From a virus (taxonomy: Duplodnaviria > Caudoviricetes), in the IMG/VR virus record IMGVR_UViG_2939311655_000001, positions 24,577-88,576 of that record: 64,000 bases of DNA, one strand, 5' to 3'. The position numbers and the translations under genes are program-made. This document shows positions 25,572-39,374 of this stretch, in pieces. Position 1 is the first letter of the stretch, and every line of letters begins with the position of its first letter. The notes below the pieces were generated by a model, which saw nothing but the letters and a program-made list of their open reading frames with translations, was not told where the DNA came from and ran no database searches.

Positions 25572-25621
25572 CTTCCCCGGTTCTCCCCGCACCACCCCGG
25601 TCCCCGCGTCAGACTGTTGGC

Positions 25622-25801
25622 GTGGGGATTCGCTATGTGGTGCTGGGTGAGACACGGCAGGAGTGCGAGGAAGGCCTCGCCGGGCTGTGCGCGGACGTGG
25701 GCGCCCGGGTGGTGCAGCAGCCGGCGCAGTTGGCGGGGCCGCGGTGGATCGGGCGGGCTGTACCGCACACGAAAGCCCCGGCCGAGGAAGGCCGGGGCTA
25801 A
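25622..25801 (+). CDS. Small hypothetical protein
   Basis: 59-aa ORF MGIRYVVLGETRQECEEGL...RWIGRAV, below the ORF-track cutoff. Confidence 0.4.
   Translation: MGIRYVVLGETRQECEEGLAGLCADVGARVVQQPAQLAGPRWIGRAVPHTKAPAEEGRG
25771..25799. terminator. Terminator hairpin between convergent units
   Basis: AGCCCCGGCC/GGCCGGGGCT 10-bp stem followed by TTC on the minus strand. Confidence 0.6.
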
Positions 25802-25812
25802 GCCGTGCGGGG

Positions 25813-26076
25813 TCAGGCCGCGGAGGACCAGCTGGCCCCATGGATGGCACGGAGTGCGCTGGCTGCGTCGTCCGACTCCATGAGCACTTCGCGGCCGGTG
25901 GAGCGACGGTCGGGGCCGACGATCCCGGCGTCGTGCATCTGGTCGAGAAGGCTGAGGGCGGTCTTGAAGGTGACTCGCACACCGTGATCGTTCTTCAGGC
26001 GTCGCTGGAGCATGGCGGGTGAGCCGTGTCGGGTGCTGGTGACGAGTTCGGTGGCGGCGTACAGCAGGTCGATCAT
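25813..26076 (-). CDS. Stand-alone FtsK gamma (winged-helix) domain protein
   Basis: DLLYAATELV.....GSPAMLQRRL....V.F..A..LLDQM...GIVGP.....REVL matches the FtsK C-terminal gamma consensus. Confidence 0.85.
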   Translation of the reverse strand: MIDLLYAATELVTSTRHGSPAMLQRRLKNDHGVRVTFKTALSLLDQMHDAGIVGPDRRSTGREVLMESDDAASALRAIHGASWSSAA

Positions 26077-26103
26077 GGGTTCTCCTGGTTCAATCGGGGC
26101 TTC

Positions 26104-26601
26104 TCACCGGGCGTTCTGATTACGAGTGTTGGCGATGACGCCGCGGGCCTGGGTGTGGATGCTGCGGGAGTCCTGGGTGACGGGCCCGTGGTAGTGCTGG
26201 TGGATGGTGGGCGGGGCCGCTTCGATGGCCGCCTTCGCTTTGCCGACGAGACGACTGATTGCGAGGACGAGGACGGTGGGGGCGCCGACGACGATGGCGC
26301 AGACGATGGGGTCGGCGTACCCGGAGGCCAGCATGACGACGGATGCGGTCCCGCCGACCATGACGGTGGTCGCGCCGCCGGCCAGCATCAGGGCGGAGGC
26401 GTCCGTCGCCTTCTGCGACATGGGCGGCCGGCCTTGCTGCGGTACGGGCGGGGTGGGGCCGACGACCGGGAGCGGACTCGGGTCGCGGTATGCGGTGGCC
26501 TTCTCGATCTCGTTGATGGCGGCCATCAACTGGTCGGCGTTGCGGCGGATGACGGGGTCGGGCCGCCCGGGGCGGGTGGGCTGCTGCTCGGGCAGCTGCA
26601 T
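26104..26601 (-). CDS. SpdD-like membrane protein (plasmid/AICE spread family)
   Basis: Pro-rich N-part, GRPPMSQKATD, two hydrophobic helices, HQHYHGPVTQ tail. Confidence 0.6.
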   Translation of the reverse strand: MQLPEQQPTRPGRPDPVIRRNADQLMAAINEIEKATAYRDPSPLPVVGPTPPVPQQGRPPMSQKATDASALMLAGGATTVMVGGTASVVMLASGYADPIVCAIVVGAPTVLVLAISRLVGKAKAAIEAAPPTIHQHYHGPVTQDSRSIHTQARGVIANTRNQNAR

Positions 26602-26630
26602 GACGGGGTCTCCTTGGGGTGTGGGGTCGG

Positions 26631-26729
26631 TCAGCCGCAGCCGATGCAGCGCTTGTCTTTCTTGCCGTTCCAGGTGTCGCATCGCGTGCAGCGCCATCTG
26701 GCGAGGGTGGTGATCAGGCTGTAGAGCAT
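26631..26729 (-). CDS. Tiny zinc-ribbon peptide
   Basis: WRCTRCDTWN.....RCIGCG (RanBP2-like spacing); AGGAG RBS. Confidence 0.5.
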   Translation of the reverse strand: MLYSLITTLARWRCTRCDTWNGKKDKRCIGCG

Positions 26730-26739
26730 TCGGGCTCTC

Positions 26740-26934
26740 CTATCGGTTGCGGCGGCGGGTGGAACGCCACCCGAGGGGTCCGGGCAGGTCCATGGATGTG
26801 GTGCGGCGCCCGGTGGAGCTGATCGTGTGACGGGGGCCGGGGCCGCCGCCCAACGTGATCGACCAGGAACGGCGGTTGATGTTGAGCCGGACCCCAGGGA
26901 AGATCCGGAAGCTCTTGCGGAACGTGAGCGGCAT
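26740..26934 (-). CDS. DUF4236-like protein
   Basis: MPLTFRKSFRIFPGVRLNIN..S.S.T.G.......SSTG..T...LPG. Confidence 0.8.
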   Translation of the reverse strand: MPLTFRKSFRIFPGVRLNINRRSWSITLGGGPGPRHTISSTGRRTTSMDLPGPLGWRSTRRRNR

Positions 26935-26943
26935 GCGGGGCTC

Positions 26944-27720
26944 CTACGCTTCGGCGGGTTGGTTGGCGCGGTGCTTGCCGGTGCCCAGGCAGATCGGGCA
27001 GACGGTCGTGGTGTGGACGCTGTTCCGGGCGGAGTAGAGGGCACCCTTGCCGCCGCAGCAGAAACAGACGCCGCGGTTCTCGGCGGCCTTCTGGCCGAGC
27101 GGGGTGTTCTGGGCCTCCCACTCCTCGTCGGTCATCGACGACGTGGTGTCGGTCTTGGTGACGGGCTCGGCCTGGGTGACGGGCTTCGCTTCGGCTTCGG
27201 CGGCTTGCCCGTACCAGGCGCCGCCGACGGATTTGCCGTGCTTCTTCTTCTCGTGCTCGCGCAGGGCCTTCGTGGCCTCCTTGGCGTCCCTGAACTTGGG
27301 CTTCTCCTTCTTGCCGCAGGGGCAGGTCCAGCCGACGAGCCCGGTCCGTTTGTCGGGGCTGAACCGGGCGGCCACGGCGACCTTGAACCGGCCGGCCTTC
27401 GCCTTCGTCGGCTTGGCCGGGCAGGGCTTCGAGCCGGTGAATGAGCCGTCCTTGCCCTTGGTGAAGAGCTGCCCGTTGCCCTTACAGGTGGTGCAGCCTT
27501 CGTGGGTGAGGCGGAGGATCGCGGCGTCCTTGCGGGACATGACGACGGTCTTACGGGCATCCATCTGCGACGCGGCCTGGAGAGCCAGCCACATACCCAT
27601 CCGGGCGTGAATCGGGACGGTCTTGGGGACTTTGAGGCCTTTGCCGACTCGGGCGCGCGGGACGGTCTTCCGGCGGCGGGCGGCCGTGGCTTTGCGGGCG
27701 GTCGTCGTCTTCGCGGGCAT
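26944..27720 (-). CDS. Basic zinc-finger protein with DnaJ-type CxxCxGxG motifs
   Basis: CTTCKGNG, WTCPCG...H, CFCCGGKG, CPICLGTG; Lys/Arg-rich. Confidence 0.7.
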   Translation of the reverse strand: MPAKTTTARKATAARRRKTVPRARVGKGLKVPKTVPIHARMGMWLALQAASQMDARKTVVMSRKDAAILRLTHEGCTTCKGNGQLFTKGKDGSFTGSKPCPAKPTKAKAGRFKVAVAARFSPDKRTGLVGWTCPCGKKEKPKFRDAKEATKALREHEKKKHGKSVGGAWYGQAAEAEAKPVTQAEPVTKTDTTSSMTDEEWEAQNTPLGQKAAENRGVCFCCGGKGALYSARNSVHTTTVCPICLGTGKHRANQPAEA

Positions 27721-27768
27721 GATCGGCGGGTCCTCTCGTCTGAACTGCACATATATGGATCAATAGGG

Positions 27769-27905
27769 CGGCAGGCACCCGGCGGGACCCCGGCGCTAGC
27801 CCGGCGGATGCCCGGCGACCTGCGGTGATGCAAGCGGGTCCCGCCGGGTGTCTGCCGGGTCTACGCCGCCCTCTTGCCGAGGTTCTGCCGGGTCTCCGCC
27901 GGGTC
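27769..27905. repeat. clt-like locus: 8-bp TraB-recognition-type repeats at 11-bp spacing plus 22-bp inverted repeat
   Basis: GACCCGGC on the minus strand at 27854, 27887, 27898, with variants at 27843, 27865, 27876. NNCCCGGC on the plus strand at 27776, 27787, 27798, 27809. Inverted repeat 27769-27790/27836-27857 with 1 mismatch. Confidence 0.7.
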
Positions 27906-29969
27906 GAGAAGGCCAGCGGCGGCCTTCTCGACGTCGTCTCGGCGCCACCCTCGGAGGTAGGCCCCCTCGGGGCAGTCCGTGCGGTCGGACTTGACCCCGG
28001 GGGCGTGCTTGCGGAGCTTCGTCGACAGGCTCGTCGCGTCCACGCCCTGAATGCCCGCGTCCGCGATGGCGGGGAGCAGCACCTCGTTGGTGGGCAGGAA
28101 GTCGCGCCCCGTCTCGTCGAACGCGCGCATAAGGGCGGCCACGAGGTAGGCATCGTCCACGCCGCCCTGCTGGGCGAAGGCGTCGAGCCGGTCGGCTAGG
28201 TTCACCCGCTGGCCACTGGCAGCGAGAGCGACTCCGGCCTTGAGGAGGGTCTCGGAGTCCATGGTGGTGATGCCGGCGGCGACGCGCGCGGGGACTGCCC
28301 CGGCGATCTGGTCGCGGGTGTACTTGGCGAACTGGTAGCGGATCGCCCGGTTGAACGGCCCGCCCATGATCATGGCTTGGCCTGCATCGTTCGCAACGGG
28401 GCCGACTGCGGGTTTCATGCGATCGGGGCGCCATCCTTCCTTTCCGGCCCCAGGACCAAAGGCGATCTTGACGTCTTCGAAGCGGCAGGCCATGAGGAGT
28501 CGGTAGGCAATGATCATCGCGACGGCGTCGCCGAGGGCATCAGCGGTCGCCTCCTGTCCGGCCATGATCAAGTAGATGCCGTACTGGCGACCGGTCCGCA
28601 AGATCTTGACCGCCAGCTCCTTACCCTTGGGGCTGAGCTGAATGAACTCGTCGATGTTGATGTACAGGTTGGGGTGCTTCGCAGTGGCGTGCCACCGGTC
28701 GCCCATCTTCAGGCTGTCCATGAGGTTGCGGCGGGCGGACACGTAGGAGAGGGCCTCTTCAAGGGCCGCCTCGCACTCCTCGGGCGTTCGAGCCCGGCGG
28801 GACATGAGATCCCCAAACTCGGACAGCCCGCCCTTGATGGGGTCAAGGTCCCAGACCGTGGCGTCCCGGCAGGCGGTCAACGCCTCGTTGATCGCCCGCA
28901 GCGCACCCAGCGTCTTCCCGGCACCCATCGCCCCGATGATCAGGGCACAGAACCCGTCCAGGGTGATCTCGAACGGCGACCCGTCCATGGTCCGCCCCAT
29001 AGCGACCACGTCGTGCACCGACAGGGACCGCGGCGCGTGAACCGCCGGGGTCGGCATGTCGGCGAACGGGTTGGACTGAACCAGGCGGGCGGTGATTCGG
29101 GACTTATCCGTCGTGTCGGGCTCCATCATGAACCCGCCGTCAGGCAGCCCGAGGTCGGACTCCAAGTCGTCCGCCACAGCCATGACCTTGCCGGGAGTGG
29201 ATCCCTTCAGGGTGACGTCGAGCTCCCACCCCCACCCCTTCGCGCCAACGATGGTGATCGCCCGGGTACCGATCCCCTGAGCGGCCAGGGCGCGGGACAC
29301 GCATTCGATGACCTGCTCGCCGCCGACGCAGTACGACAGGGGGAACGGGTCGTCGGAGTCGAGGGCGTCCTGCTCGGCCACGACCTGGTCGGCCTCGATG
29401 CCGGGCGCGTTGAGCCGGTACCGCCCGTACAGGGCGGTGGCGGTGGCGGCAAGCAGCCCGGTCGTGGTGGGGGGTACAGCCCAGGAGTAGTCGAGGGCGG
29501 TCATTTCGGCACCGGCGACGAGCGCCCACCAGCCGGCCAGGTTGAGGGCGGCGGTGGTGATGGCGGAGTAGCCGAGGAACTTCCACCGGGAGTGGCGTTC
29601 CCGCTTGACGTAGTTCAGGTCCGCCTTCGAAGTGACACCGCCGATGTACTCCATGGTGTCGCGGCCGCGCACGTACCGGTATCCGAGGTAGCTCCCGGCT
29701 TTGAGCCCTGCCCAGAACCAGCCGCCGGCGACCACGGATCCGTAGGCGGTGAGTCCGACGGCCCGGCCGGTGACGGAGGCGACGACCATGGCCGCGGAAC
29801 GGGTGTGTCGGATCACGGGGCGGCGGTCCGGGAACGGGAGGAGAACACCGGGGGCAATGTCGTCGTCGCCGTCCACGGCGGTCGGCTCGGCCGGGTGGAT
29901 TACCTGCCCGGGGATGACCTTCTCGAAGCCGTGCGGGTTCGCCGCCTCGGTGGCGTAGTCGGTACTCAC
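27861..29969 (-). CDS. traB: TraB-like FtsK/SpoIIIE conjugative DNA translocase
   Basis: N-terminal transmembrane segments, Walker A GAMGAGKT, Walker B YINIDEF, GRQYGI...AGQ and C-terminal winged helix; clt-like repeats at its 3' end. Confidence 0.85.
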   Translation of the reverse strand: MSTDYATEAANPHGFEKVIPGQVIHPAEPTAVDGDDDIAPGVLLPFPDRRPVIRHTRSAAMVVASVTGRAVGLTAYGSVVAGGWFWAGLKAGSYLGYRYVRGRDTMEYIGGVTSKADLNYVKRERHSRWKFLGYSAITTAALNLAGWWALVAGAEMTALDYSWAVPPTTTGLLAATATALYGRYRLNAPGIEADQVVAEQDALDSDDPFPLSYCVGGEQVIECVSRALAAQGIGTRAITIVGAKGWGWELDVTLKGSTPGKVMAVADDLESDLGLPDGGFMMEPDTTDKSRITARLVQSNPFADMPTPAVHAPRSLSVHDVVAMGRTMDGSPFEITLDGFCALIIGAMGAGKTLGALRAINEALTACRDATVWDLDPIKGGLSEFGDLMSRRARTPEECEAALEEALSYVSARRNLMDSLKMGDRWHATAKHPNLYINIDEFIQLSPKGKELAVKILRTGRQYGIYLIMAGQEATADALGDAVAMIIAYRLLMACRFEDVKIAFGPGAGKEGWRPDRMKPAVGPVANDAGQAMIMGGPFNRAIRYQFAKYTRDQIAGAVPARVAAGITTMDSETLLKAGVALAASGQRVNLADRLDAFAQQGGVDDAYLVAALMRAFDETGRDFLPTNEVLLPAIADAGIQGVDATSLSTKLRKHAPGVKSDRTDCPEGAYLRGWRRDDVEKAAAGLLDPAETRQNLGKRAA

Positions 29970-29993
29970 GGGAGTGTTCCTTTCGTGCGACGG

Positions 29994-31343
29994 CTAGTCG
30001 GCGGACAGCTCGGTCTTGACGGCGTCGCGAAGGCGGACGGCGTATTCGTTGGACCCGCCGCCGATGACTTCTCGGACCTTGCGGGCGGACAGGCGGTCGA
30101 TGTCGCCGAGGGCTTCGGCGAGTTTGCGGACCGCTGCGAGGTGGGTTGCTTCGAGGGGGCGCAGCGGTGTCTTTCCGGAGGTGCGGCCAGATGCCTGCTT
30201 CCCTTTACGCCCAAGGGGTCCAGGCCCCTTGGAGGCGTCCGGGCGGCGAGCCTTCGACCCTCCCCCCGCACCACCCTTCGGGCCGCCCTCTGGAGGCGCC
30301 TGGGACGGCCCGGCGTCGCCGCCGTCGGGGCGGAAGATTTCAGCGAGGAGCCGATCCACCGCTTCGCTCTCCGGGCTGCGATCGACGTCCGACAGGACCG
30401 CGTTGATTGCTGCGCGCGCATCCTCCCGGCCGGCCAGCGTGTCGGCCGTGGTGGCGAGCGGAAGGAGGTGGAGGTTGTCCCACGCCTGCTGCCACGCAGC
30501 CTCACGGGTGATGGCCCCGGTGGGGTGCGCAACGATGATCCGCTCGTACTCGGCGAACTCCAGCGGGAGAAGCTTCCGGCGGCGCTTGTCCTCCGCGTCA
30601 TGAACCTTCTTCTGTGCCCGCCCCGCCTTGGCGGCCTTCTTCGCTGCCGCCTTCTCGGCGGCCCGCTGCTCCACACTTCGGGTGTCTGCTGCGGCGCGGC
30701 CCTCCAGGAAGTCCCGCACCTCGGCAAGCACCGGACCGATCACCGATGTTGCGGCGAGCGCCACGCCAGCGACGATCCCGTACTCGTCGACGCCGTGCGC
30801 CAGGTTGATGTACCCGGCGATCGAGGCGAGAGCGGCGGTGAGAATCCAGAACGGCCACCGCGGCAAACCCTTGCGGTGCGCCCACCTGGTGCCAAGCACG
30901 CCGACCCAGGCCAACAGCTCCAGGAAGAACGGGATCGGGCCGAGAAGCCATGCCCTGCCCGGGTCCTCCTCGCCCTTCTTGTGCAGGCCGAGGAAGTACG
31001 ACAGCTGGGCGGGGAGTGCGGCCAGAAGTCCGAGGACGACAGCCACGTTGACGAGCCGCTTGAATCCGGCGCCATTGTCCGCGCTGGCTTCGCGGCGCCG
31101 CTGCTTCAGTTCGGCCTGCTCGTCCTTCGCGGACTCCTTGACCGCGTCGAGCTTCTTCTTGAGACCGGCCTGCTTGACCTGTTCGGCCAGGAGGTCGGTG
31201 GCGGTCTTAGCTGCGCCGGCTTCTGCTGCCTGGGCGCTGACTGAGCGGGCGGCGTCGGCTTCGGCGGCGATCCGTGCCGCTTCGGCACGGGTCTTGGCGG
31301 CCGCGGCCTCACGCTCCTCCCAGGAACGGTAGTCGGCACTCAT
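29994..31343 (-). CDS. SpdB2/DUF2637-like membrane protein
   Basis: N-terminal coiled coil, four hydrophobic helices, low-complexity linker and C-terminal HTH-like LSARKVREVIGGGS; immediately upstream of traB. Confidence 0.7.
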   Translation of the reverse strand: MSADYRSWEEREAAAAKTRAEAARIAAEADAARSVSAQAAEAGAAKTATDLLAEQVKQAGLKKKLDAVKESAKDEQAELKQRRREASADNGAGFKRLVNVAVVLGLLAALPAQLSYFLGLHKKGEEDPGRAWLLGPIPFFLELLAWVGVLGTRWAHRKGLPRWPFWILTAALASIAGYINLAHGVDEYGIVAGVALAATSVIGPVLAEVRDFLEGRAAADTRSVEQRAAEKAAAKKAAKAGRAQKKVHDAEDKRRRKLLPLEFAEYERIIVAHPTGAITREAAWQQAWDNLHLLPLATTADTLAGREDARAAINAVLSDVDRSPESEAVDRLLAEIFRPDGGDAGPSQAPPEGGPKGGAGGGSKARRPDASKGPGPLGRKGKQASGRTSGKTPLRPLEATHLAAVRKLAEALGDIDRLSARKVREVIGGGSNEYAVRLRDAVKTELSAD

Positions 31344-31376
31344 GGGGTGTCCTTCCGGGACGGTGGGGGCGGTGGG

Positions 31377-31619
31377 TTAGGCGTTGGTGTCGGCGTCGAT
31401 TCGCCGGTTGCCCGTCGCGACGAGGGCGGAGTTGAGGTATTCGAGGGCGTCGGCCTCGTCGATTCGGAGCCGGCTGCGGCCGAAGATGAGCGCTGCGAGA
31501 TCGGCTGGCTCAACCTTGAGCTGCCCGGTGCTGGGGTCCCTGTCGGCTCGGGCGATGAGGTGGCAGGCCGCCCTCATGGCCGCGTTGTGGCGGTGTCGGG
31601 TGCGGATCTGCTTCAACAT
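31377..31619 (-). CDS. Hypothetical protein (transfer operon)
   Basis: MLKQIRTRHRHNAAMRAACHLIA..., 80 aa. Confidence 0.55.
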   Translation of the reverse strand: MLKQIRTRHRHNAAMRAACHLIARADRDPSTGQLKVEPADLAALIFGRSRLRIDEADALEYLNSALVATGNRRIDADTNA

Positions 31620-31635
31620 GGCGTGTCCATTCGGG

Positions 31636-32043
31636 TCAGGCGTGGGTGGGCTGGTTGTTGCGAAGCCAGGTTTCGACGTCGAGGGCGAGTCCGCCGTCGT
31701 CGTCCGGGTCATCGGGGTCTGCCTCGTCGTCGCCGTCGTCGGGGGCGCCGCCGCAGCACTGGCACTCGGCACCGGGCCAGATCCGCCCCGACTCCCACAG
31801 GCCGTGGGCGAGGGAGCCGACCAGGTCGAGGACCCAGCTCGGGCCGGCGAGGATCAGGGCCGGAGTCAGGGAGCCGGCGCCGAAGCCGGGGGCACCAGTG
31901 ACTGCGAGCGCCGCGATGAGAGCAATGAATCCGGCGGCCCGCCACTGGTGGTGGCTGCGGTTGAGCAGCGTCTCGCGCGGGTGACGGGCAAGGTCGGACC
32001 AGAGGCGGATCAGGTCGGCTACGGGTCGAGGCAGGCGCTTCAT
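31636..32043 (-). CDS. Membrane protein (transfer operon)
   Basis: Hydrophobic stretch, CQCC motif, acidic tail. Confidence 0.6.
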   Translation of the reverse strand: MKRLPRPVADLIRLWSDLARHPRETLLNRSHHQWRAAGFIALIAALAVTGAPGFGAGSLTPALILAGPSWVLDLVGSLAHGLWESGRIWPGAECQCCGGAPDDGDDEADPDDPDDDGGLALDVETWLRNNQPTHA

Positions 32044-32348
32044 CGGTGGCTCCCGGCGGTTGCGGTACGGCGTGCGCGGTGAAATTCGGCGACGAACTCG
32101 TCGGTGAGGCCGGATCCGACCGCCGCCCCGAACGGGGGAAGGCCTGTGTGCTGGGAGGCCCACAGTTCGAGCCAGGCGGCCCGGGTCGCCGCGTAGTTGA
32201 TGAGCGGCCGGGCACAGCGAACGATCAAAACTGCTGCGCCCAGCACGGTCATGACGGTCAGGGCGAGGATCCGCAGCACGCACACCCGCACACAGACAGC
32301 GGTGCGCCGGATACGGCCCGGCTTCGCAGTGATCAAGTACGGGTGCAC
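32040..32348 (-). CDS. Membrane protein (transfer operon)
   Basis: Long hydrophobic helix VCVLRILALTVMTVLGAAVLIV; AGGAG RBS. Confidence 0.6.
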   Translation of the reverse strand: MHPYLITAKPGRIRRTAVCVRVCVLRILALTVMTVLGAAVLIVRCARPLINYAATRAAWLELWASQHTGLPPFGAAVGSGLTDEFVAEFHRARRTATAGSHR

Positions 32349-32374
32349 GGTGCGACTCCTCTCGGGTTGACCGG

Positions 32375-32557
32375 TCAGCGGTTGCGGCGTGCGGCCTTTG
32401 CGGCCTTTGCGGCCTTCTTCGTGGTGACGACCCGATCGTGGGAGTCGAGGTACTCGGCACTGCCGGGGTCGGTGCTGTCGTTGTTGAACCGGGCGTTGTG
32501 CTGGGCCTGGGCCGCCTTCGCGGCGACGGCCTCGGGGCTGCGGTTACGTCCGAACAT
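32375..32557 (-). CDS. Small hypothetical protein
   Basis: MFGRNRSPEA..., GAGGAG RBS. Confidence 0.5.
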   Translation of the reverse strand: MFGRNRSPEAVAAKAAQAQHNARFNNDSTDPGSAEYLDSHDRVVTTKKAAKAAKAARRNR

Positions 32558-32586
32558 GGGGATCTCCTCGAAATTGGGTGATGGGG

Positions 32587-32967
32587 CTATCGGTTGACGA
32601 CCGGCAGGTGGAGGTCGCGGTGCTGAACGGTGACGGTGTGTCCGTCGGTGGTGAGCTGGTCGGCGAGGGCCTGAGCGAACGTTGGTGCCCGGTGTCTGCC
32701 GCCAGCGCATCCGTCGGCGATGGCGATGGGCCCGGCACTGGGGCCAGCGGCGAACGCGTTCACAGCGGCAGCGGTTGCCGCGACCAGGTCGGTGATGCCC
32801 GGCGTCGCGAGCACCGCGGCTCGGACAGGTTCGTCGTTCGCGGTCATGTGCCTGAGTTCCGGGCTGACGTGCGGGTCCCGGAAGTGGTGGCGAAGATCGA
32901 TGACCAGGTGAGCGGCAGGCGGGGTGTTGTGGAGATAGCCGAACGAGGTGATCTCGACCTGGGCCAT
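32587..32967 (-). CDS. RapZ (YvcJ/YhbJ) C-terminal-like domain protein
   Basis: ITSFGY.H...P.A..V.DLR...RDP......R.MT..D..V...V and IA.GCAGGRHRA...V.HRDL. Confidence 0.8.
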   Translation of the reverse strand: MAQVEITSFGYLHNTPPAAHLVIDLRHHFRDPHVSPELRHMTANDEPVRAAVLATPGITDLVAATAAAVNAFAAGPSAGPIAIADGCAGGRHRAPTFAQALADQLTTDGHTVTVQHRDLHLPVVNR

Positions 32968-32998
32968 CGCGGTGTGTCCTTCCGGGGTATCGAGTGGG

Positions 32999-33211
32999 TC
33001 AGGCGTGGCTGGGGGTCCAGGTGCCGTTGTCGAGGTCGTTGAGCTCGTCGATTGCCTCGTCTGCGGCCTGTCGCATGTTCTCGGCGAGCCGGTGCTGGCC
33101 GGCGGCCTGGAGGTCGCGCTGGGCGGTGCGGGAGTTCGTGATGTCGGCCTTGATCTCGGCGCGGGTCTGCTCGGCCGACTGGCTCTTGAAGAAGTGACGG
33201 GCGCTTGCCAT
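32999..33211 (-). CDS. Small hypothetical protein
   Basis: MASARHFFKSQ... helical 70 aa; GAGGAG RBS. Confidence 0.55.
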   Translation of the reverse strand: MASARHFFKSQSAEQTRAEIKADITNSRTAQRDLQAAGQHRLAENMRQAADEAIDELNDLDNGTWTPSHA

Positions 33212-33297
33212 GGGACGCTCCTCGGTTCGGGCTCCTGTTGGTCCGGGCCTCGCCACCGCCACCAGCAGGTTGCTGGCAACGATGGGGCGGGCCGGGG

Positions 33298-33600
33298 TCA
33301 GGCGGCGGCGAACAGGTTGAGGGCGTCGAGGGTGTCGAGCTCGTCGACGAGGCGCGGCCCGAACGGCTGGGCGGCGTCCGCCTCCGCGGCCAGCTCCCGC
33401 AGCCACACCTGGATCCGGTAGTCATCGCGGGCGGCGACGTACCGGGTGACGATCTCCGCCGGGGCGATGCCCTCCGCCTCCTGGTGGGCGAGGTCGATGT
33501 CGGCGATGAGGATGTCCCGGCCGGTGCTGCGGATCGTCGCGGAGATCGTGGCGAGGTCACCGGAGAACAGGGACGTGACGTTGGAGACGAACGGAGACAT
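33298..33600 (-). CDS. Hypothetical protein
   Basis: MSPFVSNVTSLFSGDL..., 100 aa. Confidence 0.55.
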   Translation of the reverse strand: MSPFVSNVTSLFSGDLATISATIRSTGRDILIADIDLAHQEAEGIAPAEIVTRYVAARDDYRIQVWLRELAAEADAAQPFGPRLVDELDTLDALNLFAAA

Positions 33601-33847
33601 GGGGGTACCTATCTGTGAGTAAGGGGGTGAAGCGGAGGGGTGGAAAGCCGCGGTCACGGGGGCTACGGGGGAATGGGCTCCCCGTGACCGCGGCGGTCTG
33701 TGGGTTAGCGGCGGGTGCGGGCCTGCTGCCGGGCGGCAGCGGCGCGCACGTCGACGCCGTTCTCGTAGTCGCGTCGGCACGCCGCAGGGGTGGCCGGCTC
33801 GGCGACGATGGGGTTCTCGCGGGGGGTGGTCGGCTTCGCATCCATGG

Positions 33848-34069
33848 CTACCAGTCCCCGAAGGTGCAGACGGGGCCGCACTCGCCGCGGGCGTGAGAGC
33901 TGCCGGGGGCAAAGTGGGCGTTGATGCTGTCCCGGCGCTGCTCGTCCAGGCGAACGTCGTTCCGGATGTTCCAGCTGACAGGTGTCGCGCCGGCCTTGAG
34001 CTCGTCACAACGTGGGCAGCCGTCGACCTTCTTGCCGAAGTTCGGCTTGTGCGAGTGCCTGGTAGCCAC
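33848..34069 (-). CDS. Small zinc-binding protein
   Basis: H..KPNFGKKVDGCPRCDEL...H.....CGPVCTFGDW. Confidence 0.6.
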   Translation of the reverse strand: MATRHSHKPNFGKKVDGCPRCDELKAGATPVSWNIRNDVRLDEQRRDSINAHFAPGSSHARGECGPVCTFGDW

Positions 34070-34071
34070 GG

Positions 34072-34251
34072 TCACCACTCCCAGTCGGGCTGCTCGGCGT
34101 GCGCGGCAGCCTCTTCGAACGCGGTCCGGATGCTCACCCGGTACAGCGGCAGCGACTCCCAGTTCGGATTGGACGCGACCTGCGCCGCCACGAAACCGAC
34201 CAGCTTCTCGGCGCGGCGCTCCTCCTTCAGAGCAAGCGCCTGGGCGATCAC
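34072..34251 (-). CDS. Small hypothetical protein
   Basis: GTGA-coupled 59 aa ORF. Confidence 0.45.
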   Translation of the reverse strand: MIAQALALKEERRAEKLVGFVAAQVASNPNWESLPLYRVSIRTAFEEAAAHAEQPDWEW

Positions 34252-34478
34252 CGGACACTCCCGGCGGTCAGCCGGTCGAGCTCGGCCTGCGCCTCGGCCA
34301 GCCGATCGACGTCGGCCGGCGTCATCGAGCGGGCGTCCTTGCCGGACAGCTCGACGATGGTCTCCTGGCAGATCCGGGTGCGGACCGCGGTACGGCTGGT
34401 GCGGATGTAGGAGCCGGCCTCGTGGGCGGCGGTGTCGGCCGGAGTGAGCGTGGACGCCGGGGCGATCGAGGGGGTCAT
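34248..34478 (-). CDS. Small hypothetical protein
   Basis: ATGA-coupled 76 aa ORF. Confidence 0.55.
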   Translation of the reverse strand: MTPSIAPASTLTPADTAAHEAGSYIRTSRTAVRTRICQETIVELSGKDARSMTPADVDRLAEAQAELDRLTAGSVR

Positions 34479-34720
34479 GCCGCCACCTCGCTCGGGGTGA
34501 TGACCGAGCCGGACAGGTAGGCGACGACCGCGGACTCCGGGACCCGCAGACCGCGGGGGCGGATCTTGCCGGTTCCGTGCCGGTGACTCCGGAGGTCACC
34601 GCTGCGAACGAGGCGGTAAACGGCGGTCAGCGAGACATTCAGGGTCTCCGCGACCTCGGCCGCAGTGAGCCGCCTCTCGGTCTTCAGTTCCAGGGCCGGG
34701 GCGGGGGCGGTGTCACTCAT
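34475..34720 (-). CDS. Excisionase-like HTH protein
   Basis: LTAAEVAETLNVSLTAVYRLVRSGDL.S.R.G......RVPESAV..YL. Confidence 0.85.
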   Translation of the reverse strand: MSDTAPAPALELKTERRLTAAEVAETLNVSLTAVYRLVRSGDLRSHRHGTGKIRPRGLRVPESAVVAYLSGSVITPSEVAA

Positions 34721-34764
34721 CGTTCTCCTTCCAGGCATGAGAGGTCTGTAGGCCCCGGATCCGG

Positions 34765-34828
34765 AACCTGTCTAGGACCAGTAGAGCAGCTTAGGCAGCT
34801 CTGAGCAAGCACTGGTCCTAGACAGGTT
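34765..34828. promoter_or_regulatory. 18-bp perfect inverted repeat carrying GntR/HutC-type operators
   Basis: AACCTGTCTAGGACCAGT at 34765-34782 and ACTGGTCCTAGACAGGTT at 34811-34828, upstream of the transfer operon. Confidence 0.75.
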
Positions 34829-34838
34829 GTGGCGCCAC

Positions 34839-34867
34839 AAGAAAGCCCCCGGCGATCAGCCGGGGGC
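34839..34867 (-). terminator. Intrinsic terminator after the GntR gene
   Basis: GCCCCCGGC/GCCGGGGGC stem followed by TTTCTT on the minus strand. Confidence 0.7.
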
Positions 34868-34887
34868 CTGTCAGGGAAGTGCGCAGC

Positions 34888-35640
34888 TCAGGAGGGGAAC
34901 GTGTACACCAGGCGGTAGCTATCCGCGTCAAGCATCATCTCGTTGACCTCAACAGGTCGGTCCTCGGCGTCATAGGCGGTGCGAACAATCAGGATCACTG
35001 GAGTGCTCATCGTGATCCCGAGCGTCTTCGACTCACTCGGAAGCGGGAGTCGAACCTTGATCTCCTCGCGGTAGCGCGCCGGCCCGTGCCCGATCTCATC
35101 GAGTCGCGCATAGACGCCGCCCGGGCCAGTATTCGGCTCGGTGATCGCCGTGCCATCAGCCAGATCTGCGGGGTACCAGGCGGTCGACTGCTGCACCGGC
35201 CGCCTCTCGGCCTGGTAAACCCTGCTTCGACGCCAGACCTTCTGCCCCTTAACGCCCAGCGTGCCAGCGATGCCGTCCGGCGCGTCGACCTTGTCGATCT
35301 CAACATTCTCCTGGCGGTCCCTGCCATGGAGGTCGGAGTCCCAGACGGCTCGCCCTGCACCCCAATGCTTGCGAGACAACCGCTCTACAGCATCGCGGCC
35401 GATGCGGGAGAATGTGCGAAGGAAGACACCAGATCCGCCGCGGGACTCGATGAGGTCTTCGCCGCGCAGTATCTGCAACGCGTCCCGCACGGTGTTCCTT
35501 GCGGTGTCGAACTCTTCCGTCAGCGCGCGCTCGCTGGGCAGCTTGCCAGTGGCCGCGTAATCGCCAGCCTCGATCCGCGCGCGCAACTCATCCGCGATCT
35601 CGACGTAGCGCGGCTTCTTGCTCTGCGCTGGATCCTTCAA
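34888..35640 (-). CDS. GntR/HutC-family repressor with UTRA domain (KorSA-like)
   Basis: PRYVEIADELRARI..G......LPSE..L...F..ARNTVRDAL..L..E.LI....G.GVF and a UTRA C-terminus (RTAYD....PVE). Confidence 0.92.
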   Translation of the reverse strand: MKDPAQSKKPRYVEIADELRARIEAGDYAATGKLPSERALTEEFDTARNTVRDALQILRGEDLIESRGGSGVFLRTFSRIGRDAVERLSRKHWGAGRAVWDSDLHGRDRQENVEIDKVDAPDGIAGTLGVKGQKVWRRSRVYQAERRPVQQSTAWYPADLADGTAITEPNTGPGGVYARLDEIGHGPARYREEIKVRLPLPSESKTLGITMSTPVILIVRTAYDAEDRPVEVNEMMLDADSYRLVYTFPS

Positions 35641-35739
35641 GGCGTTCCTCCTCAGGTGGTTGGTGAATCAAATGTACCGGTCTACCTGGCGAGATCCCCT
35701 TGACCTGTACCGCCTGGCAGCAGTGACAACTCAGACCGC

Positions 35740-35781
35740 TTGACATTGGTCCTATACCAATGAACGATGTGGTCTATAGCC
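35740..35781 (+). promoter_or_regulatory. Putative sigma70-type promoter overlapped by a GntR-type operator
   Basis: TTGACA (35740)-N17-AACGAT, with palindrome ATTGGTCCTATACCAAT at 35745-35761. Confidence 0.55.
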
Positions 35782-35894
35782 AACCGAACGGATGGACGTT
35801 CATGGTCACAGCCAGGTCCGAGCGCACCGCGCTCTATCGCCAGCACGAGACCGACTACCAACCCGCAGGCAGCTCCAGAGGTGAGAGCCCTCCC

Positions 35895-36989
35895 GTGACA
35901 ACAACAGAGAACCTCTCGCCGCGCTCGCGGGCGGCATGGGACTTGTTTCGGAAGCGGATCGTCCGACTTGGTGGCCAGGTCATCGAGCCAGAATGGCGAG
36001 GAGCGACCGCACGACATCGAGTGAAGTGCCCCGCAGGTCACGACTCTCTCGTTAAACCTCACCTAATCCTGCGGCGGCGCAGGCTATGCCTTGAGTGCCC
36101 ACTTCCCTCATCTATCGAAGCCTGGGAGAAGTTCCGGGCGCGGGTGGAGGGACTGGGTGGGGAAGTCCTCGACACGACATGGCAGGGAAGTCGACAAACC
36201 TATGCGGTCAGATGCCCTGCGGGCCATGTGAATCAAATCTGGCCCATCGGGCTGCATCAGAGCCACGGCATCTGCCTCGCATGCGTCGGAAACAGCCCTA
36301 AGGCGGCATGGGAGGGCTTTCAATCTCTCGTCAAGCAGCTAGGTGGAGTGGTTGTCGAGGAAGCCTGGAAGGGCAAAGACGAACCGCACGCGTGCCTGTG
36401 CCCTCAAGGGCACGAGTGCGCCCCCCGCCCCGGACACTTACGCAGAGGGACCGGCATGTGCCTCACGTGTGCTGGCAGGGATCCCGATGTCGCCATGGCG
36501 GCGTTTCGCGCCCGGGTCAAAGAGCTTGGCGGCGAAGTGCTTGAGCCGGCCTGGCTTGGCAACGTGACGCCGCATCGGGTTCGTTGCTCCAAGGGCCACG
36601 AAACCACGCCCGCCCCGAGCTCCGTACAGCAAGGGAACGGCATCTGTCGCAAATGCGCCGGCAAAGTGTGGGATGTGTTCTATGTTGTCGCCGACGAGGT
36701 CCACGACACCGTGAAGTTCGGTATCACGTCAGGAGATCCGCGCCCCCGACTCAAGACCCATGGGCGGGATGGCTTTGAGCGCGTCATCCGTCTGGTCGAG
36801 AACCTCCCAGGAGACCTTGCGCCGCGACTGGAACGAGTTGTTCTCACAGCATTACGCGACGCCCGGGAGTCACCCATCCGTGGCGCTGAGTACTTCCCTG
36901 CCCGCACTCTCGGCCTGATCCTCGACTTGGTCGACGGCTGGACAACGACGGTGGAATCAGCCAACGCCTCACCGAATGCCCGCCCCTGA
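35895..36989 (+). CDS. Zinc-ribbon-repeat protein with C-terminal GIY-YIG-like nuclease domain
   Basis: Four repeats of F...V..LGG.V....W.G......C..GH............C..C, then FYVV.....VKFGIT...RPRL..H...LE. Start codon uncertain. Confidence 0.7.
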   Translation: MTTTENLSPRSRAAWDLFRKRIVRLGGQVIEPEWRGATARHRVKCPAGHDSLVKPHLILRRRRLCLECPLPSSIEAWEKFRARVEGLGGEVLDTTWQGSRQTYAVRCPAGHVNQIWPIGLHQSHGICLACVGNSPKAAWEGFQSLVKQLGGVVVEEAWKGKDEPHACLCPQGHECAPRPGHLRRGTGMCLTCAGRDPDVAMAAFRARVKELGGEVLEPAWLGNVTPHRVRCSKGHETTPAPSSVQQGNGICRKCAGKVWDVFYVVADEVHDTVKFGITSGDPRPRLKTHGRDGFERVIRLVENLPGDLAPRLERVVLTALRDARESPIRGAEYFPARTLGLILDLVDGWTTTVESANASPNARP

Positions 36990-37085
36990 AACGCAAACGG
37001 CCGGGCGCTGATACGCCCGGCCAGTTCAACCAGCGAGTCATCAGCTCGCCAGTCAGAGATGCATCCCAATCAGAGGAGTACCTCG

Positions 37086-37502
37086 ATGAACACTGTAGCA
37101 ACCTCCCCTGCCGTCGTCGCGGCCCCTGTCGTATCGGCTCCGATCCCTCCGCATATCCGCCCGGCTTTGGTGAACGGTGTCCGCATTTTCGTGGAGTGCG
37201 AGCCGTGGTGCATTGAGGATCACGTGGCGGCGAATGAGCGCCACCTGGACGACCTGGATCACGGCGGGGAGATGGTGGACTTCCTGGTGCCGGATATGGA
37301 TGGAGAGGCCCAGCTGCTGGGTCATGTCCGGTTGAGTGCGGAGCCGGGCAGTTCCCGTCCCGAGCTGCGCCGCCCGCATCTGCTGGTCGAGGACGGCAGC
37401 GGCTTCACTGTGTTCGTGGCCCTGAAGGATGCCGGCGGGTTTGCGGATGGTCTGGTGGCTGCCGCGGAGCAGGTGCGCGCGATGGCGCGGGCCGCCCGCT
37501 GA
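37086..37502 (+). CDS. DUF6907-like hypothetical protein
   Basis: ECEPWCIEDH.......DLDH...FADGL..AAEQVRAMA; GAGGAG RBS. Confidence 0.65.
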   Translation: MNTVATSPAVVAAPVVSAPIPPHIRPALVNGVRIFVECEPWCIEDHVAANERHLDDLDHGGEMVDFLVPDMDGEAQLLGHVRLSAEPGSSRPELRRPHLLVEDGSGFTVFVALKDAGGFADGLVAAAEQVRAMARAAR

Positions 37503-37626
37503 GCTCCTGTGGTTTCTCTTGGCCGGGCGGCTTCTGCTGCCCGGCCGTTTCCAGATCGGCTCGTTCTCGGGAGCTCTGTGTTTCAGCAGGTGTACGCCGC
37601 ATGCGGCGGCGTGAAGGAGGTGAGTC

Positions 37627-38730
37627 GTGGGCGTTCGTTTGATCGTTGAGGTGTTGGATCATTGGCGGGATGCCGGGCTCACCGCGGGCGAGCGGGACGA
37701 CTTGGTCGTGTTGGCGGAGAACGCGAACGATGGGAGCCGGTTGACGTGGGGGCCGGTTCATGAGCCGTACATTCTGCGGCGTGCCAACAAGTCGGCGGCT
37801 GGGTGGAAGAACTCGATCGGCAAGCTGATCAAGAAGCAGGTTCTTGTTCAGCACGTTCAGGGGCATGTTGGCCAGGCCGCCGTCTATCGGCTGGCGCAGC
37901 TCTGTCCGGAGGCTCCGCATGACGGGTGGAAGGGGCATTGCACCCGGCCGGAAAGGGTCACCTCAGAGGTGACCCTTTCGGAAGGCGACCAGGAAGAGGG
38001 TCACCTCTCAGATGACCCTCAGGGTCACTCCGCAGGTGACCCTCTCGGGCCAAAGGGTCACCTGACAGGTGTGGAAAGGGTCATCTCTCAGGTGACCCCT
38101 ACTCCTCCTGTCTCCTCTTTAAAGACCCCCTCAAAGACCTCCTCCTCCCCCGCGGCGCCGTCGCCGACTGCGAACGTCGGTCCCGAGGACGGCGGCGGTG
38201 GCGGTGTTTCTCCTTCGGAGCAGAATCCGCAAGCCGAACCCCTGGTGGCTGCTCTTGACTTCCGGGGCCGGCCGCCGGGAGTGAAGCAGCGACGGCAGCT
38301 GCTGGCCCTTGTGGCTGCCGCTTTGGACGCCGGCTGGGTGGAGCAGGATTTGAAGGCGTACCTGGATTTGGGGGGTGCCGCGGTGAATTCGGCTGCGGCT
38401 GTGTACGCGCACCGGCTGGACTCGGGTGAGCTCCCGGACCCGGTGACGTTCCGGGAGGCCGCCAGCAGGCCACTGGTGGGCACTGACGCCGCGGTGGATG
38501 GGTGGATGGCCCTGAGCCGTCAGCTTGGCGGGCACAAGCCGTACACGGACACGTGGCGGCAGCTGGATGAGGACGCCCGGTCCGGGGTTCGGCCGGCTGG
38601 GTGGGAGCGGGTGCCGCACTGCGGGGGCCCGGACTGTGACGAGGTCACCCGAACGCATGAGGTGCTGGACGGGCAGGGGCTGCCGTCGTTGCGGATGTGC
38701 TCGGCGTGTCATCCGGCGATGCGGTTCTGA
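37627..38730 (+). CDS. Putative replication initiator (lambda O-like layout) of the transfer module
   Basis: N-terminal winged helix (LTAGER..LVVLAENAND..R), central low-complexity region encoded by iterons, C-terminal HCG..CDEVTR....C..CHP; AAGGAGG RBS. Confidence 0.75.
   Translation: MGVRLIVEVLDHWRDAGLTAGERDDLVVLAENANDGSRLTWGPVHEPYILRRANKSAAGWKNSIGKLIKKQVLVQHVQGHVGQAAVYRLAQLCPEAPHDGWKGHCTRPERVTSEVTLSEGDQEEGHLSDDPQGHSAGDPLGPKGHLTGVERVISQVTPTPPVSSLKTPSKTSSSPAAPSPTANVGPEDGGGGGVSPSEQNPQAEPLVAALDFRGRPPGVKQRRQLLALVAAALDAGWVEQDLKAYLDLGGAAVNSAAAVYAHRLDSGELPDPVTFREAASRPLVGTDAAVDGWMALSRQLGGHKPYTDTWRQLDEDARSGVRPAGWERVPHCGGPDCDEVTRTHEVLDGQGLPSLRMCSACHPAMRF
37951..38098. repeat. Iteron array GGGTCA-N9-TGACCC (putative origin)
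   Basis: Full copies start at 37955, 37998, 38022 and 38078, with a partial copy at 38055. The first extends to a 29-bp palindrome (37951-37979). Confidence 0.8.
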
Positions 38731-38751
38731 GGGTTAATGGTCAACGTCCAG

Positions 38752-38797
38752 CTATGGCACCCCCACCATTGACACACTATGGCAGGGGTGCCATAGT
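38752..38797 (+). promoter_or_regulatory. Promoter TTGACA-N17-CATAGT with overlapping palindromic operator
   Basis: CTATGGCA-GGGG-TGCCATAG at 38777-38796 and an extra site CTATGGCACCCC at 38752-38763. Confidence 0.65.
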
Positions 38798-38844
38798 CAT
38801 GGATGTCGGGAGGCGCAAGGCCCCCCATGACGAGGGGACAGGCC

Positions 38845-39360: not shown

Positions 39361-39374
39361 CCCGCCCGCACACA

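Follow-up and report, generated by a model that had tools for sequence, protein, structure and literature searches.

Phages and conjugative elements are normally seen as separate vehicles, and one laboratory case combines both: the plasmid-phage pZL12, which Zhong et al. in 2010 reportedly described as a plasmid, a phage, and a conjugative element. What, then, is a block of genes that looks like the transfer and replication module of a Streptomyces plasmid doing inside an integrase-bearing siphovirus? This question is raised by positions 25813-38730 of the DNA analyzed here (the window, 64,000 nucleotides), which represents bases 24577-88576, i.e., the right 64 kb, of one 88,576-bp virus record (IMGVR_UViG_2939311655_000001). 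An initial annotation of the window had read the block as a conjugative module with an FtsK-like TraB pump, a clt site, Spd proteins, and a GntR-type Kor/TraR repressor. Our comparisons lead us to the view, to which we assign a probability of roughly 60%, that the block is the phage's own, vertically kept plasmid-type system for the transfer of double-stranded DNA (dsDNA), that it would be used for capsid-free transfer, and that it is no foreign insert. The element may therefore also spread without virus particles, which has been shown once for pZL12 and not for an integrated phage. We called genes from third-position GC content (GC3) and then ran domain scans. The argument starts from three features:

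27861-29969, minus strand: predicted TraB-like dsDNA translocase of 702 aa (FtsK fold, NF041214, phrog_12531)
27778-27905, unstranded: clt-like repeat array spanning the stop codon of the ATPase gene and the adjacent intergenic region (repeat scan)
37627-38730, plus strand: initiator-like protein of 367 aa (AlphaFold2 [AF2] model, iterons)

The ATPase has a Walker A motif at residue 346, and residues G349, K352, D440, and E441 are invariant in an alignment of 12 sequences. An AF2 model built from 12 sequences (mean predicted local distance difference test [pLDDT] score 60) is confident at residues 204-470 and 600-695 and includes a C-terminal helix/strand domain at about 590-695, with pLDDT about 85 over residues 600-695. 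In a Foldseek search, this model found the FtsK motor first (6t8b_A at E 1.2e-11, 2ius), then the coupling protein TcpA of pCW3 and EccC, which together with the invariant residues points to a P-loop motor of the FtsK/SpoIIIE fold. A phmmer search of PDB sequences found nothing at E 0.01. The best NCBIfam match is NF041214 (plasmid_TraB, E 1.7e-7), and the protein belongs to phrog_12531 (E 3.5e-85). Homologues detected by tblastn occur in 54 records of Streptomyces or Kitasatospora plasmids, where the motor is 28-37% identical, and in 89 phage records, where a homologous "FtsK-like DNA translocase" shows 32-40% identity with a coverage of up to 83% (the phage genomes are ca. 120-136 kb among the 30 matches listed). 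Closer relatives, at 52-86% identity, are present at three loci in genomes and 11 IMG/VR loci, and full-length ATPase open reading frames (ORFs) could be extracted from 13 of these 14.

The initial annotation had asked for a phylogeny to tell a TraB from septal FtsK or SffA. We ran a quick maximum-likelihood search on 26 rows (LG+G4), with support given only as the Shimodaira-Hasegawa-like approximate likelihood ratio test (SH-aLRT) and with several long branches; all rows were retained, including the partial sequence of locus L009 and two ORFs of genome G003 that are cut by the locus edge. The window family forms one clade (SH-aLRT 99) that is sister (95) to a group of pFP1, a 28-kb linear plasmid, and gp105 of phage Angela. 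Beyond these follow ORFs with weak PF01580 matches, then pZL12.71c with its counterpart on the NBC_01259 plasmid, and then a 484-aa ORF with a strong PF01580 match, while FtsK lies on the root side, at the opposite end from the window family, together with a 1260-aa PF01580 protein. The ATPase thus groups with plasmid-borne TraB-like proteins. We rejected its identification as a septal FtsK or SffA given this position and its score of 22.6 bits with PF01580, compared to 220 bits for the chromosomal FtsK of G003.

If the protein is a TraB, a site on which it acts should be found nearby. Passages on clt regions in PMC4447253 describe direct 8-bp repeats that are read by the cognate TraB, and the candidate clt at the end of the ATPase gene consists of eight phased copies over the stop codon (27861): CCCGGCG is repeated four times at 11-bp spacing (27778, 27789, 27800, and 27811), and inverse copies (CGCCGGGT / GCCGGGTC) lie at 27842, 27854, 27887, and 27898. 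Eight of the 191 GCCGGG sites of the window lie, with 11-bp phasing, within 27770-27910 (141 bp; expected 0.42, Poisson 1.7e-8), which bears out the 8-bp repeats that had been noted at the 3' end of this gene. A window-wide scan for at least five copies of one 7-mer in 140 nt flagged only four places: palindromes at ca. 23.9 kb, the 3' end of the ATPase gene, a CG-rich run at ca. 35.5 kb, and 37.9-38.1 kb.

Repeat arrays span the ATPase stop codon in the window and in all 13 relatives examined, with a motif that is specific to the lineage. It is of the GACCCGGC type in the window and eight loci, of the CCCGTCT type in L008, L019, and L026, of the CCGGCC/GACCGG type in L025, and CTGCTCA in L027; under the stricter rule of five copies in 140 nt, the array at the ATPase end is flagged in five of the 13. 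The C-terminal 110 residues of the ATPase sort into the same groups as the motif. The clearest case is L019, where the motor is 94% identical to that of the window but the C-terminus only 45%, and where both the C-terminus and the CCCGTCT motif are of the L008/L026 type. The C-terminal domain of each ATPase may recognize its own repeats.

The gene is also a mosaic along its length. Relative to the window gene (27861-29969), the N-terminal part, motor, and C-terminal domain are 85/51/46% identical in L008 and 71/94/45% identical in L019 (L019:9956-12028). Domains of one gene thus have different nearest relatives, so recombination shuffles them together with the downstream array.

A second pair of protein and cis-acting site lies at the other end of the block. 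According to its AF2 model, the initiator-like protein begins with a winged helix, which a disordered linker connects to a helical C-terminal domain with a Cys4 ribbon. Four palindromic iterons of 19-21 bp (GGGTCA-N9-TGACCC) are located at 37955-38098, within the part of the gene that encodes the linker, and six of the eight GGGTCACC sites in the window fall into these 144 bp; no tandem array is present upstream of the gene. A replication origin inside the linker-coding part of its initiator gene is an arrangement as in lambda O and the RepA_N plasmids. The divergent rep gene with iterons that had been proposed is therefore correct as far as the iterons are real, but these lie inside the ORF and not upstream of it, and the "rep" itself matches no known family. 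As with the array, the sites differ between lineages: the homologue in genome G002 (93% identical) retains all four palindromes, whereas the homologue in L027 (69% identical) has five units of another palindrome (GGCCCAACC...GGTTGGGCC) in the same central part. The array motif thus tracks the ATPase C-terminus and the iterons track the initiator, so both the clt-like site and the iterons look selected and appear to be in use.

This covariation bears on the possibility that the module is a relic of a plasmid-phage ancestor, with reading frames still open but idle, or kept only for a regulatory or exclusion function. In favor of a relic, the ATPase of L009 is reduced to its C-terminal half (residues 352-695), and other features would suit this view as well: parts of the operon have been replaced between lineages, with GntR proteins just 28-71% identical and many small ORFs unmatched, and a lineage-specific gene has been inserted at 35760-36989. 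We nonetheless consider a relic improbable for the window family, given that the ATPase is full-length in 13 of the 14 loci with G349/K352 and D440-E441 invariant in the 12 aligned sequences, and that the arrays have been retained while changing in step with the C-terminal domain, which is not expected of dead DNA. The L009 locus itself lies in the chromosome of S. albidocamelliae (CP106795, 1278549-1299568); its ATPase match is 77% identical, no other genes of the block were found in this 21-kb locus, and it is probably the decayed remnant of such an element.

Between the two pairs lies an operon whose composition can be compared with that of known transfer regions:

34888-35640, minus strand: GntR/HutC-type repressor, the analogue of TraR/Kor (GntR E 1.2e-17, UTRA E 1.7e-23)
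34767-34826, unstranded: perfect 16-nt inverted repeat ACTGGTCCTAGACAGG with a 28-nt spacer, a candidate operator pair between the GntR gene and the operon
34475-34738, minus strand: HTH_17/excisionase-family DNA-binding protein, first gene of the transfer operon (PF12728 E 2.5e-11, TIGR01764 E 3.4e-9)
31377-34478, minus strand: nine small ORFs of the transfer operon (gene calls by GC3)
33298-33600, minus strand: 100-aa ORF (95% identical in G002)
32999-33211, minus strand: 70-aa ORF (73% identical to the NBC_01259 plasmid)
32587-32967, minus strand: stand-alone RapZ C-terminal domain protein (PF22740 E 1.6e-26)
31636-32043, minus strand: 135-aa membrane protein with one segment (38% identical to the pFP1 ORF upstream of the DUF2637 gene)
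29994-31343, minus strand: SpdB2-like protein of 449 aa, directly before the ATPase gene (hydropathy, pFP1 DUF2637 match)
26944-27750, minus strand: Cys-rich 268-aa protein with CxxC motifs, directly downstream of the ATPase gene (conservation)
26104-26697, minus strand: 197-aa protein with two hydrophobic segments at residues 103-121 and 130-148 (phrog_19266 E 4.5e-61)
25813-26076, minus strand: free-standing winged helix of the FtsK_gamma type, 87 aa, last gene of the transfer operon (PF09397 E 1.5e-12)

Most of the parts named by the initial annotation were recovered here: the GntR-UTRA repressor, the excisionase-like helix-turn-helix (HTH) protein, and the free FtsK gamma domain all by domain matches, and the coiled-coil transmembrane protein as the 449-aa SpdB2-like protein, with its coiled coil seen by eye only. 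Its "small membrane proteins" hold in part, because two of ten small ORFs scanned in 31377-34720 have a hydrophobic segment while the other eight do not, and one of these two is the RapZ C-terminal domain protein. A match to the GntR protein stands at the equivalent place in eight of the 14 related loci, a count that like all such counts below is a lower bound, since some loci have short flanks; identity is merely 28-71%. With a GntR-UTRA gene directly upstream of the operon and a perfect inverted repeat in the promoter region, the arrangement would suit a repressor of the TraR/Kor type. The two arms of ACTGGTCCTAGACAGG are the only matches in the window at up to three mismatches, and six of 100 shuffles also reach two. 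This repeat may resemble the operators of HutC-type regulators. A stem followed by a T-run (34843-34870) after the GntR gene was taken by eye as its putative terminator; a promoter and terminator scan showed no excess over shuffled sequences, and this hairpin was not among its rows.

The HTH_17 protein may be an excision factor or a regulator. It is the sole HTH_17 match above cut-off in the record, with matches in five of the 14 related loci, and a second HTH_17 gene with a weaker score of 23 bits is located close to the integrase (60741-61052). The 449-aa protein has an Ala/Lys/Glu-rich N-terminus, three clear hydrophobic segments (residues 92-110, 133-151, and 189-207; three to four overall), and a C-terminal part that looks like an HTH. 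It had no match in Pfam or PHROGs scans, but residues 98-227 are 28% identical (E 9e-8) to a pFP1 protein annotated as DUF2637, whose gene sits directly upstream of the TraB-like gene of pFP1, i.e., in the same position. In the Atlas it looks like DUF2637 (0.94) and also like HTH_SpdB_C/SpdB_N clusters (0.84), the latter being no more than a lead, and the gene is matched at the same relative place in nine of the 14 loci. Downstream of the ATPase, the 268-aa gene is matched in 12 of the 14 loci at 54-92% identity; a Pfam scan gave solely a sub-threshold match to DnaJ_CXXCXGXG, and its Atlas look-alikes are unnamed. The 197-aa protein, a putative SpdD-like protein in the initial annotation, is 56% identical to pZL12.70c and 67% identical to the homologue on the NBC_01259 plasmid, has matches in seven of the 14 loci, and is encoded next to the TraB-like genes of plasmid-phages as a conserved neighbor. 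The FtsK_gamma ORF is 44% identical to a stretch on the 5' side of the TraB-like ORF of pFP1 and has a match in one of the 14 loci. The RapZ C-terminal domain gene inside the operon is unmatched in the related loci.

The closest parallels to this operon are the tra-spd regions of Streptomyces plasmids. For pSVH1, the sections on gene organization in Thoma et al. 2015 (PMC4447253) present TraR as the GntR repressor of the spdB3...spdB2-orf108-traB transcript and SpdB2 as a protein with an N-terminal coiled coil. Compared to the pSVH1 order traR-spdB3-spd79-spdB2-orf108-traB-clt given there, the block likewise has a GntR gene ahead of small spd-type genes and repeats of the 8-bp type at the traB end, and its putative coiled-coil/membrane protein directly before the FtsK-like TraB may be the counterpart of the SpdB2-type proteins of pSVH1 and pFP1. 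With pFP1 (NC_006912), which reads GntR, small ORFs, DUF2637 protein, and TraB-like gene, the block is colinear: four window proteins are matched in the same order, and the pFP1 region comprises a homologue of the 135-aa protein, the DUF2637 protein, a gamma-like stretch, the TraB-like gene, and a weak match to the 268-aa protein. Unlike these plasmids of 12-40 kb, the block resides within a phage of 90 kb, its repeats form two opposed sets with 11-bp phasing, and it includes an extra free FtsK-gamma ORF and the conserved Cys-rich 268-aa gene.

Is such a plasmid-like block a part of the phage or a passenger? The features that define the phage itself are:

1058-8105, minus strand: virion and packaging genes terS, terL, portal, capsid, and a glycosyltransferase (domain scans)
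46480-47430, minus strand: phage-type replication initiation protein, a second initiator, in the early operon (phrog_2447 E 2.5e-41)
62639-64000, plus strand: tyrosine integrase at the right end of the record (PF00589)

IMG/VR classifies the record as a provirus, with a CheckV completeness of 100. It begins at an ATG and terminates at the stop codon of the tyrosine integrase, with neither a terminal overlap nor inverted ends, so it is a provirus call trimmed at gene ends that is missing its own att sites. Its integrase is the only PF00589 frame in the whole record and is 66% identical to the integrase beside attL of a relative in G002, a 470-kb Streptomyces contig. There, C3:334466-422120 is colinear with the entire record from the integrase to a flavoprotein gene. 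Identities are mosaic, both along the phage (integrase 66%, portal 87%, capsid 90%, terL 34%) and within the block (ATPase 59%, SpdB-like protein 86%, GntR 30%, initiator-like protein 93%). This relative (C3:334283-424932) is flanked by a perfect 31-bp direct repeat (334283-334313 and 424902-424932) with no third copy in the 140 kb examined around it, and its flanks abut in G001 and G003, which share the 31-bp core and are thus empty sites. The integrating unit is therefore the whole of ca. 90.6 kb. The 31-bp core was not found in the window's own record with up to five substitutions allowed. As an aside, the G002 relative sits within a protein-coding host gene, presumably of the DUF2236/MpaB type, for which the phage end provides a short new C-terminus.

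These boundaries speak directly to the idea that the block is a separate small conjugative element, i.e., a plasmid or an actinomycete integrative and conjugative element (AICE), that was inserted into the prophage and could leave alone. Except for an integrase, it does have the parts of an AICE (Tra, repressor, candidate Rep, and an excisionase-family gene), and the GC content of the window dips at 34-38 kb. However, there is no recombinase in or beside the block and no flanking direct repeat; the best att-like repeat across it is 19 nt at 95% identity (E 0.02), which is not above chance. The G002 relative has just the outer 31-bp pair, the GC dip coincides with a lineage-specific 409-aa gene, and the block keeps its place across relatives whose backbones differ, among them complete contigs with terminal repeats. 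A nested element is accordingly very improbable, and we rejected the nested AICE. The initial annotation had been right that no second integrase or att-like repeat surrounds the block, which is not a separately bounded insert, and the survey of related prophages that it had proposed places the block at the same site in integrated and in terminally redundant phage genomes. Two of the five large relatives are such complete contigs with direct terminal repeats, both with HK97-type capsid genes, and four of the five have PF00589 matches. At the DNA level, no close relative was found in the collections searched by megablast: 23000-42000, compared with phages, and 25500-39500, compared with plasmids, returned short patches only.

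If the block belongs to the phage, the nearest precedent is pZL12. Papers that cite its original description call it plasmid, phage, and conjugative in their passages on it (PMC3583192, PMC4487206), and the part of PMC3583192 on its transfer states that a major tra gene plus two neighbors are required. Like pZL12/phiZL12 (GQ919031) and its relatives, pSLE1 and a 90-kb plasmid of NBC_01259, the record has a transfer locus together with the structural genes of a siphovirus on a single replicon. Even the gene order is the same, with the terminase side followed by the 197-aa homologue (56%), the FtsK-like gene, large membrane proteins, small ORFs, GntR (divergent or adjacent), and a candidate rep gene. 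The contrast to pZL12 as an autonomous plasmid that the initial annotation had drawn is less sharp than it suggested: pZL12 also has an integrase-family gene, and pZL12-like replicons encode integrases besides sharing the gene order. The three replicons are autonomous circles with ParA/ParB, whereas the window family is integrated (the record is classed as a provirus, and att sites are defined in a relative) and has no ParA match (PF13614, searched in the record and five large relatives). The pZL12 ATPase is very distant: tblastn detected no match at a cut-off of E 1e-5 and gave E 0.01 when the two were compared one-to-one, and it falls into a separate clade of the tree. We rejected a close kinship of the whole element with pZL12, given that just 13 of the record's gene calls are matched and most other genes are unrelated. 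The TraB of the window family appears much closer to the plasmid (pFP1-like) type than that of pZL12, and its recognition cassettes seem exchangeable.

The other obvious comparison is with AICEs such as pSAM2, in which a single att-bounded integrated element likewise combines an integrase, an FtsK-type Tra, a gene for replication, and a regulator of the GntR type and for which transfer, as would be the case here, is of dsDNA. The window element differs by its size of ca. 90 kb with a full set of virion genes, by an integrase that lies 24-33 kb from tra and rep, and by a candidate Rep that is not RepSA, RepAM, or Prim-Pol. The passages on AICE detection in Ghinet et al. 2011 (PMC3218068) name Int, a Rep of a named family, and a Tra (PF01580); of these the record has the Int, while its Tra is below the PF01580 cut-off for calling and its Rep has no match to the named families in Pfam. 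A literature search, with subscription papers and supplements outside its scope, found no published integrated Streptomyces phage with a TraB module, although "conjugative prophage" is already a term used for Phi1207.3 of Streptococcus.

Several points weigh against a working transfer system of the phage. Regarding the pump, the score of 22.6 bits with PF01580 (FtsK_SpoIIIE) is below the cut-off of 24, and 30.2 bits with NF041214 are far from the equivalog cut-off of 800, so that the ATPase is by sequence a distant relative of this TraB family and no equivalog. The tree was calculated without the characterized TraB proteins of pSVH1 and pIJ101, and SffA was not identified in it by name. The membrane anchor that had been proposed along with the FtsK motor is a weak reading, as the N-terminal 200 residues are weakly hydrophobic with pLDDT below 50: hydropathy peaks at 1.28 (62-80) and 1.33 (136-154), and the long helices modeled at 84-186 have this same low confidence. 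The link between repeats and C-terminus is partly trivial given that two of the repeats lie inside the coding end; the C-terminal differences among relatives reach well upstream of these. Regarding the initiator, none of 125 homologues has a functional name or a Pfam domain, tblastn against plasmids gave no match, and the fold searches, which effectively covered residues 2-99 only, returned winged helices that are compatible with an initiator but generic and not diagnostic. Foldseek found nothing at E 0.001, with MarR-type winged helices best and 5kbj, a RepA_N initiator-DNA complex, second (E 0.15); a VIA-align wide search gave ties at Z 6-7.4 between riboflavin kinase, MarR, Fur, the DnaD N-domain, the plasmid initiator 4pta, and RctB domain 1; and phmmer against the PDB gave three chance-level rows (E 0.019-0.99). 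Integration of the record itself rests on the IMG/VR label and the G002 relative. A search limited to ParA (PF13614) found no match in the record or five large relatives, while the pZL12 ParA used as control scored 35.9 bits, and an excised circle without ParA would not be stably inherited. Finally, the mechanism outlined below is a proposal based on which parts the DNA encodes, in what order they stand, how far they are conserved, and how they covary.

A further set of such points concerns phages that have the pump and little else, and they lead to the strongest rival explanation, ahead of decay and a nested element. The pump might serve the phage cycle by moving genomes across the cross-walls within one mycelium, or by handling host or phage DNA in some other way, with the plasmid-like neighbors as helpers. 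Homologues occur in the 89 phage records mentioned above, and the FtsK-like translocases of large Streptomyces phages (Angela gp105, Samisti12, and Peebs; phrog_12531) are the best phage matches and fall into the same region of the tree. The sister clade of the window family includes the protein of a strictly lytic phage, with Angela gp105 nested beside pFP1, and since strictly lytic Streptomyces phages carry the ATPase, a phage-specific role is conceivable. In Angela (L017, ON970591, 73634-75451), the one such neighborhood examined, the gene for the TraB-like translocase lies among tRNA genes with just a small membrane protein encoded after it. The locus lacks genes of the GntR, SpdB-like, and rep types, and a repeat array was found neither at the 3' end of the translocase gene nor elsewhere in the locus. 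A TraB-like pump can thus serve a phage without the surrounding conjugation genes. The passages on FtsK-like genes in papers on such large phages give them no known role (10.1101/2024.02.16.580700, PMC13587820), and those on pSVH1 in PMC4447253 describe TraB and Spd proteins as also driving intramycelial spreading. On the other hand, the window family retains the full plasmid-type set that Angela lacks, i.e., GntR, SpdB-like protein, and a clt-like array that covaries with the C-terminus. We therefore view a pure phage-cycle pump as unlikely, though it differs from capsid-free transfer mainly in direction (within one mycelium or between two) and overlaps with it.

Taking the block as a transfer system of the phage itself, its parts would work together as follows. 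In a lysogen, the GntR protein would bind the 16-nt inverted repeat upstream of the transfer operon and silence it, as TraR/Kor proteins do. Upon a signal the operon would be expressed, and the single integrase would excise the element, possibly helped by the HTH_17 protein. The second initiator (37627-38730) would replicate the excised circle from the iterons within its own gene, TraB hexamers would dock via their C-terminal domains on the phased 8-bp repeats, and the pump would drive the double-stranded circle across the hyphal envelope or cross-walls. SpdB-like and small membrane proteins would then aid its spread in the recipient mycelium, where the element would re-integrate. As the alternative route, the element would grow lytically, using the phage initiator and the late genes.

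A bolder version, to which we give somewhat less than even odds, is that an integrated, virion-producing prophage is at once a working AICE. One integrase and att pair would then serve both routes, with a GntR switch, a second origin, and capsid-free passage of the whole 90 kb through TraB. The pairs of TraB C-terminus and clt and of initiator and iterons would be swapped as cassettes in the manner of immunity groups, and the pumps of lytic phages would be a stripped-down version for crossing cross-walls. The combination known from pZL12 is found here in a chromosomally integrated form without partition genes, recurs in isolate genomes and soil metagenome contigs, and has cis-acting sites that evolve with their proteins. 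Should the module be functional, lysogeny could extend across a mycelium or reach a neighbor without lysis, receptors, or particles, which would alter how we reason about host range, superinfection, and gene flow in antibiotic-producing actinomycetes. The swapped pairs of C-terminus and repeats are natural specificity variants for studying how TraB reads DNA.

The borders of the block and its remaining neighbors are:

23970-24072, unstranded: left border control region with the 12-bp palindrome GTGTAGCTACAC in four copies, flanked by the divergent genes 23538-23957 (minus) and 24090-24317 (plus)
24090-25801, plus strand: rightward operon facing the transfer operon (75-aa ORF, HD, 71-aa ORF, DUF6221, 59-aa ORF)
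24314-24862, plus strand: HD-domain protein (HD_4 E 9.4e-10)
25071-25571, plus strand: DUF6221 protein (DUF6221 E 3.5e-25)
25622-25801, plus strand: 59-aa ORF (match just downstream of the module in nine of the 14 related loci)
35760-36989, plus strand: 409-aa protein with CxxC repeats of ca. 62 aa in a lower-GC stretch (GC 0.63; translation, 186-bp periodicity of the DNA)
38803-39360, plus strand: 185-aa protein, C-terminal part with the look of an HTH (60% identical to pZL12.105c; also in two other Streptomyces plasmids)

On the left, all four GTAGCTAC sites of the window fall within 23970-24072 (expected 0.16 by shuffles; Poisson 1e-10), and the GTGTAGCTACAC palindromes are likely an operator array. 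The phage's leftward operon had been thought to simply resume past the block. Leftward genes do run from 23957, but the divergent control region with its four palindromes indicates that they have a regulated start of their own and are not reached by simple read-through. The DUF6221 gene is matched just downstream of the module in six of the 14 related loci. By eye, the 75-aa ORF that opens the rightward operon (24090-24317) reads like a ribbon-helix-helix protein. The HD_4 protein could tune the host stringent response; over 54 bp, its DNA matches a gene of phage JustBecause annotated as "ppGpp synthesis/degradation protein, SpoT-like".

Toward the right of the block, the 409-aa gene lies outside the conserved module and is matched in none of the 14 related loci, which makes a recent selfish insertion between repressor and initiator probable. 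Its C-terminal part resembles, by eye, a domain of the T5orf172/GIY-YIG type. Another rightward ORF of 111 aa is listed between this gene and the initiator-like gene.

The early region of the phage includes an antirepressor-type protein, AAA_24 and PDDEXK proteins as a recombination pair, a cytosine methylase, and a vWA-TerF-like protein. Genes for the tail, tape measure, and lysin continue leftward beyond the window, where the tape measure, amidase, a GDPD protein, a small serine resolvase, a GmrSD_C protein, and Ku are encoded. Ku, the GmrSD_C nuclease-domain protein, and the small serine resolvase are encoded in the left arm of the record (G000:C1:3051-3965, 4595-5302, and 7321-7944) and, judging by G002, where the resolvase is 74% identical, lie inside the att-bounded unit. 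Within the window, a GT4 glycosyltransferase gene (1058-2089) immediately follows the capsid gene, and a cassette with an NDP-sugar epimerase (12155-14683) lies upstream of the terminase. Two GDPD-domain proteins are encoded, at 14697-16907 of the window and at G000:C1:11438-12811; one has collagen-like repeats and lies upstream of the packaging genes, the other beside the lysis genes, and homologues (55-59%) are present in pZL12 and the NBC_01259 plasmid.

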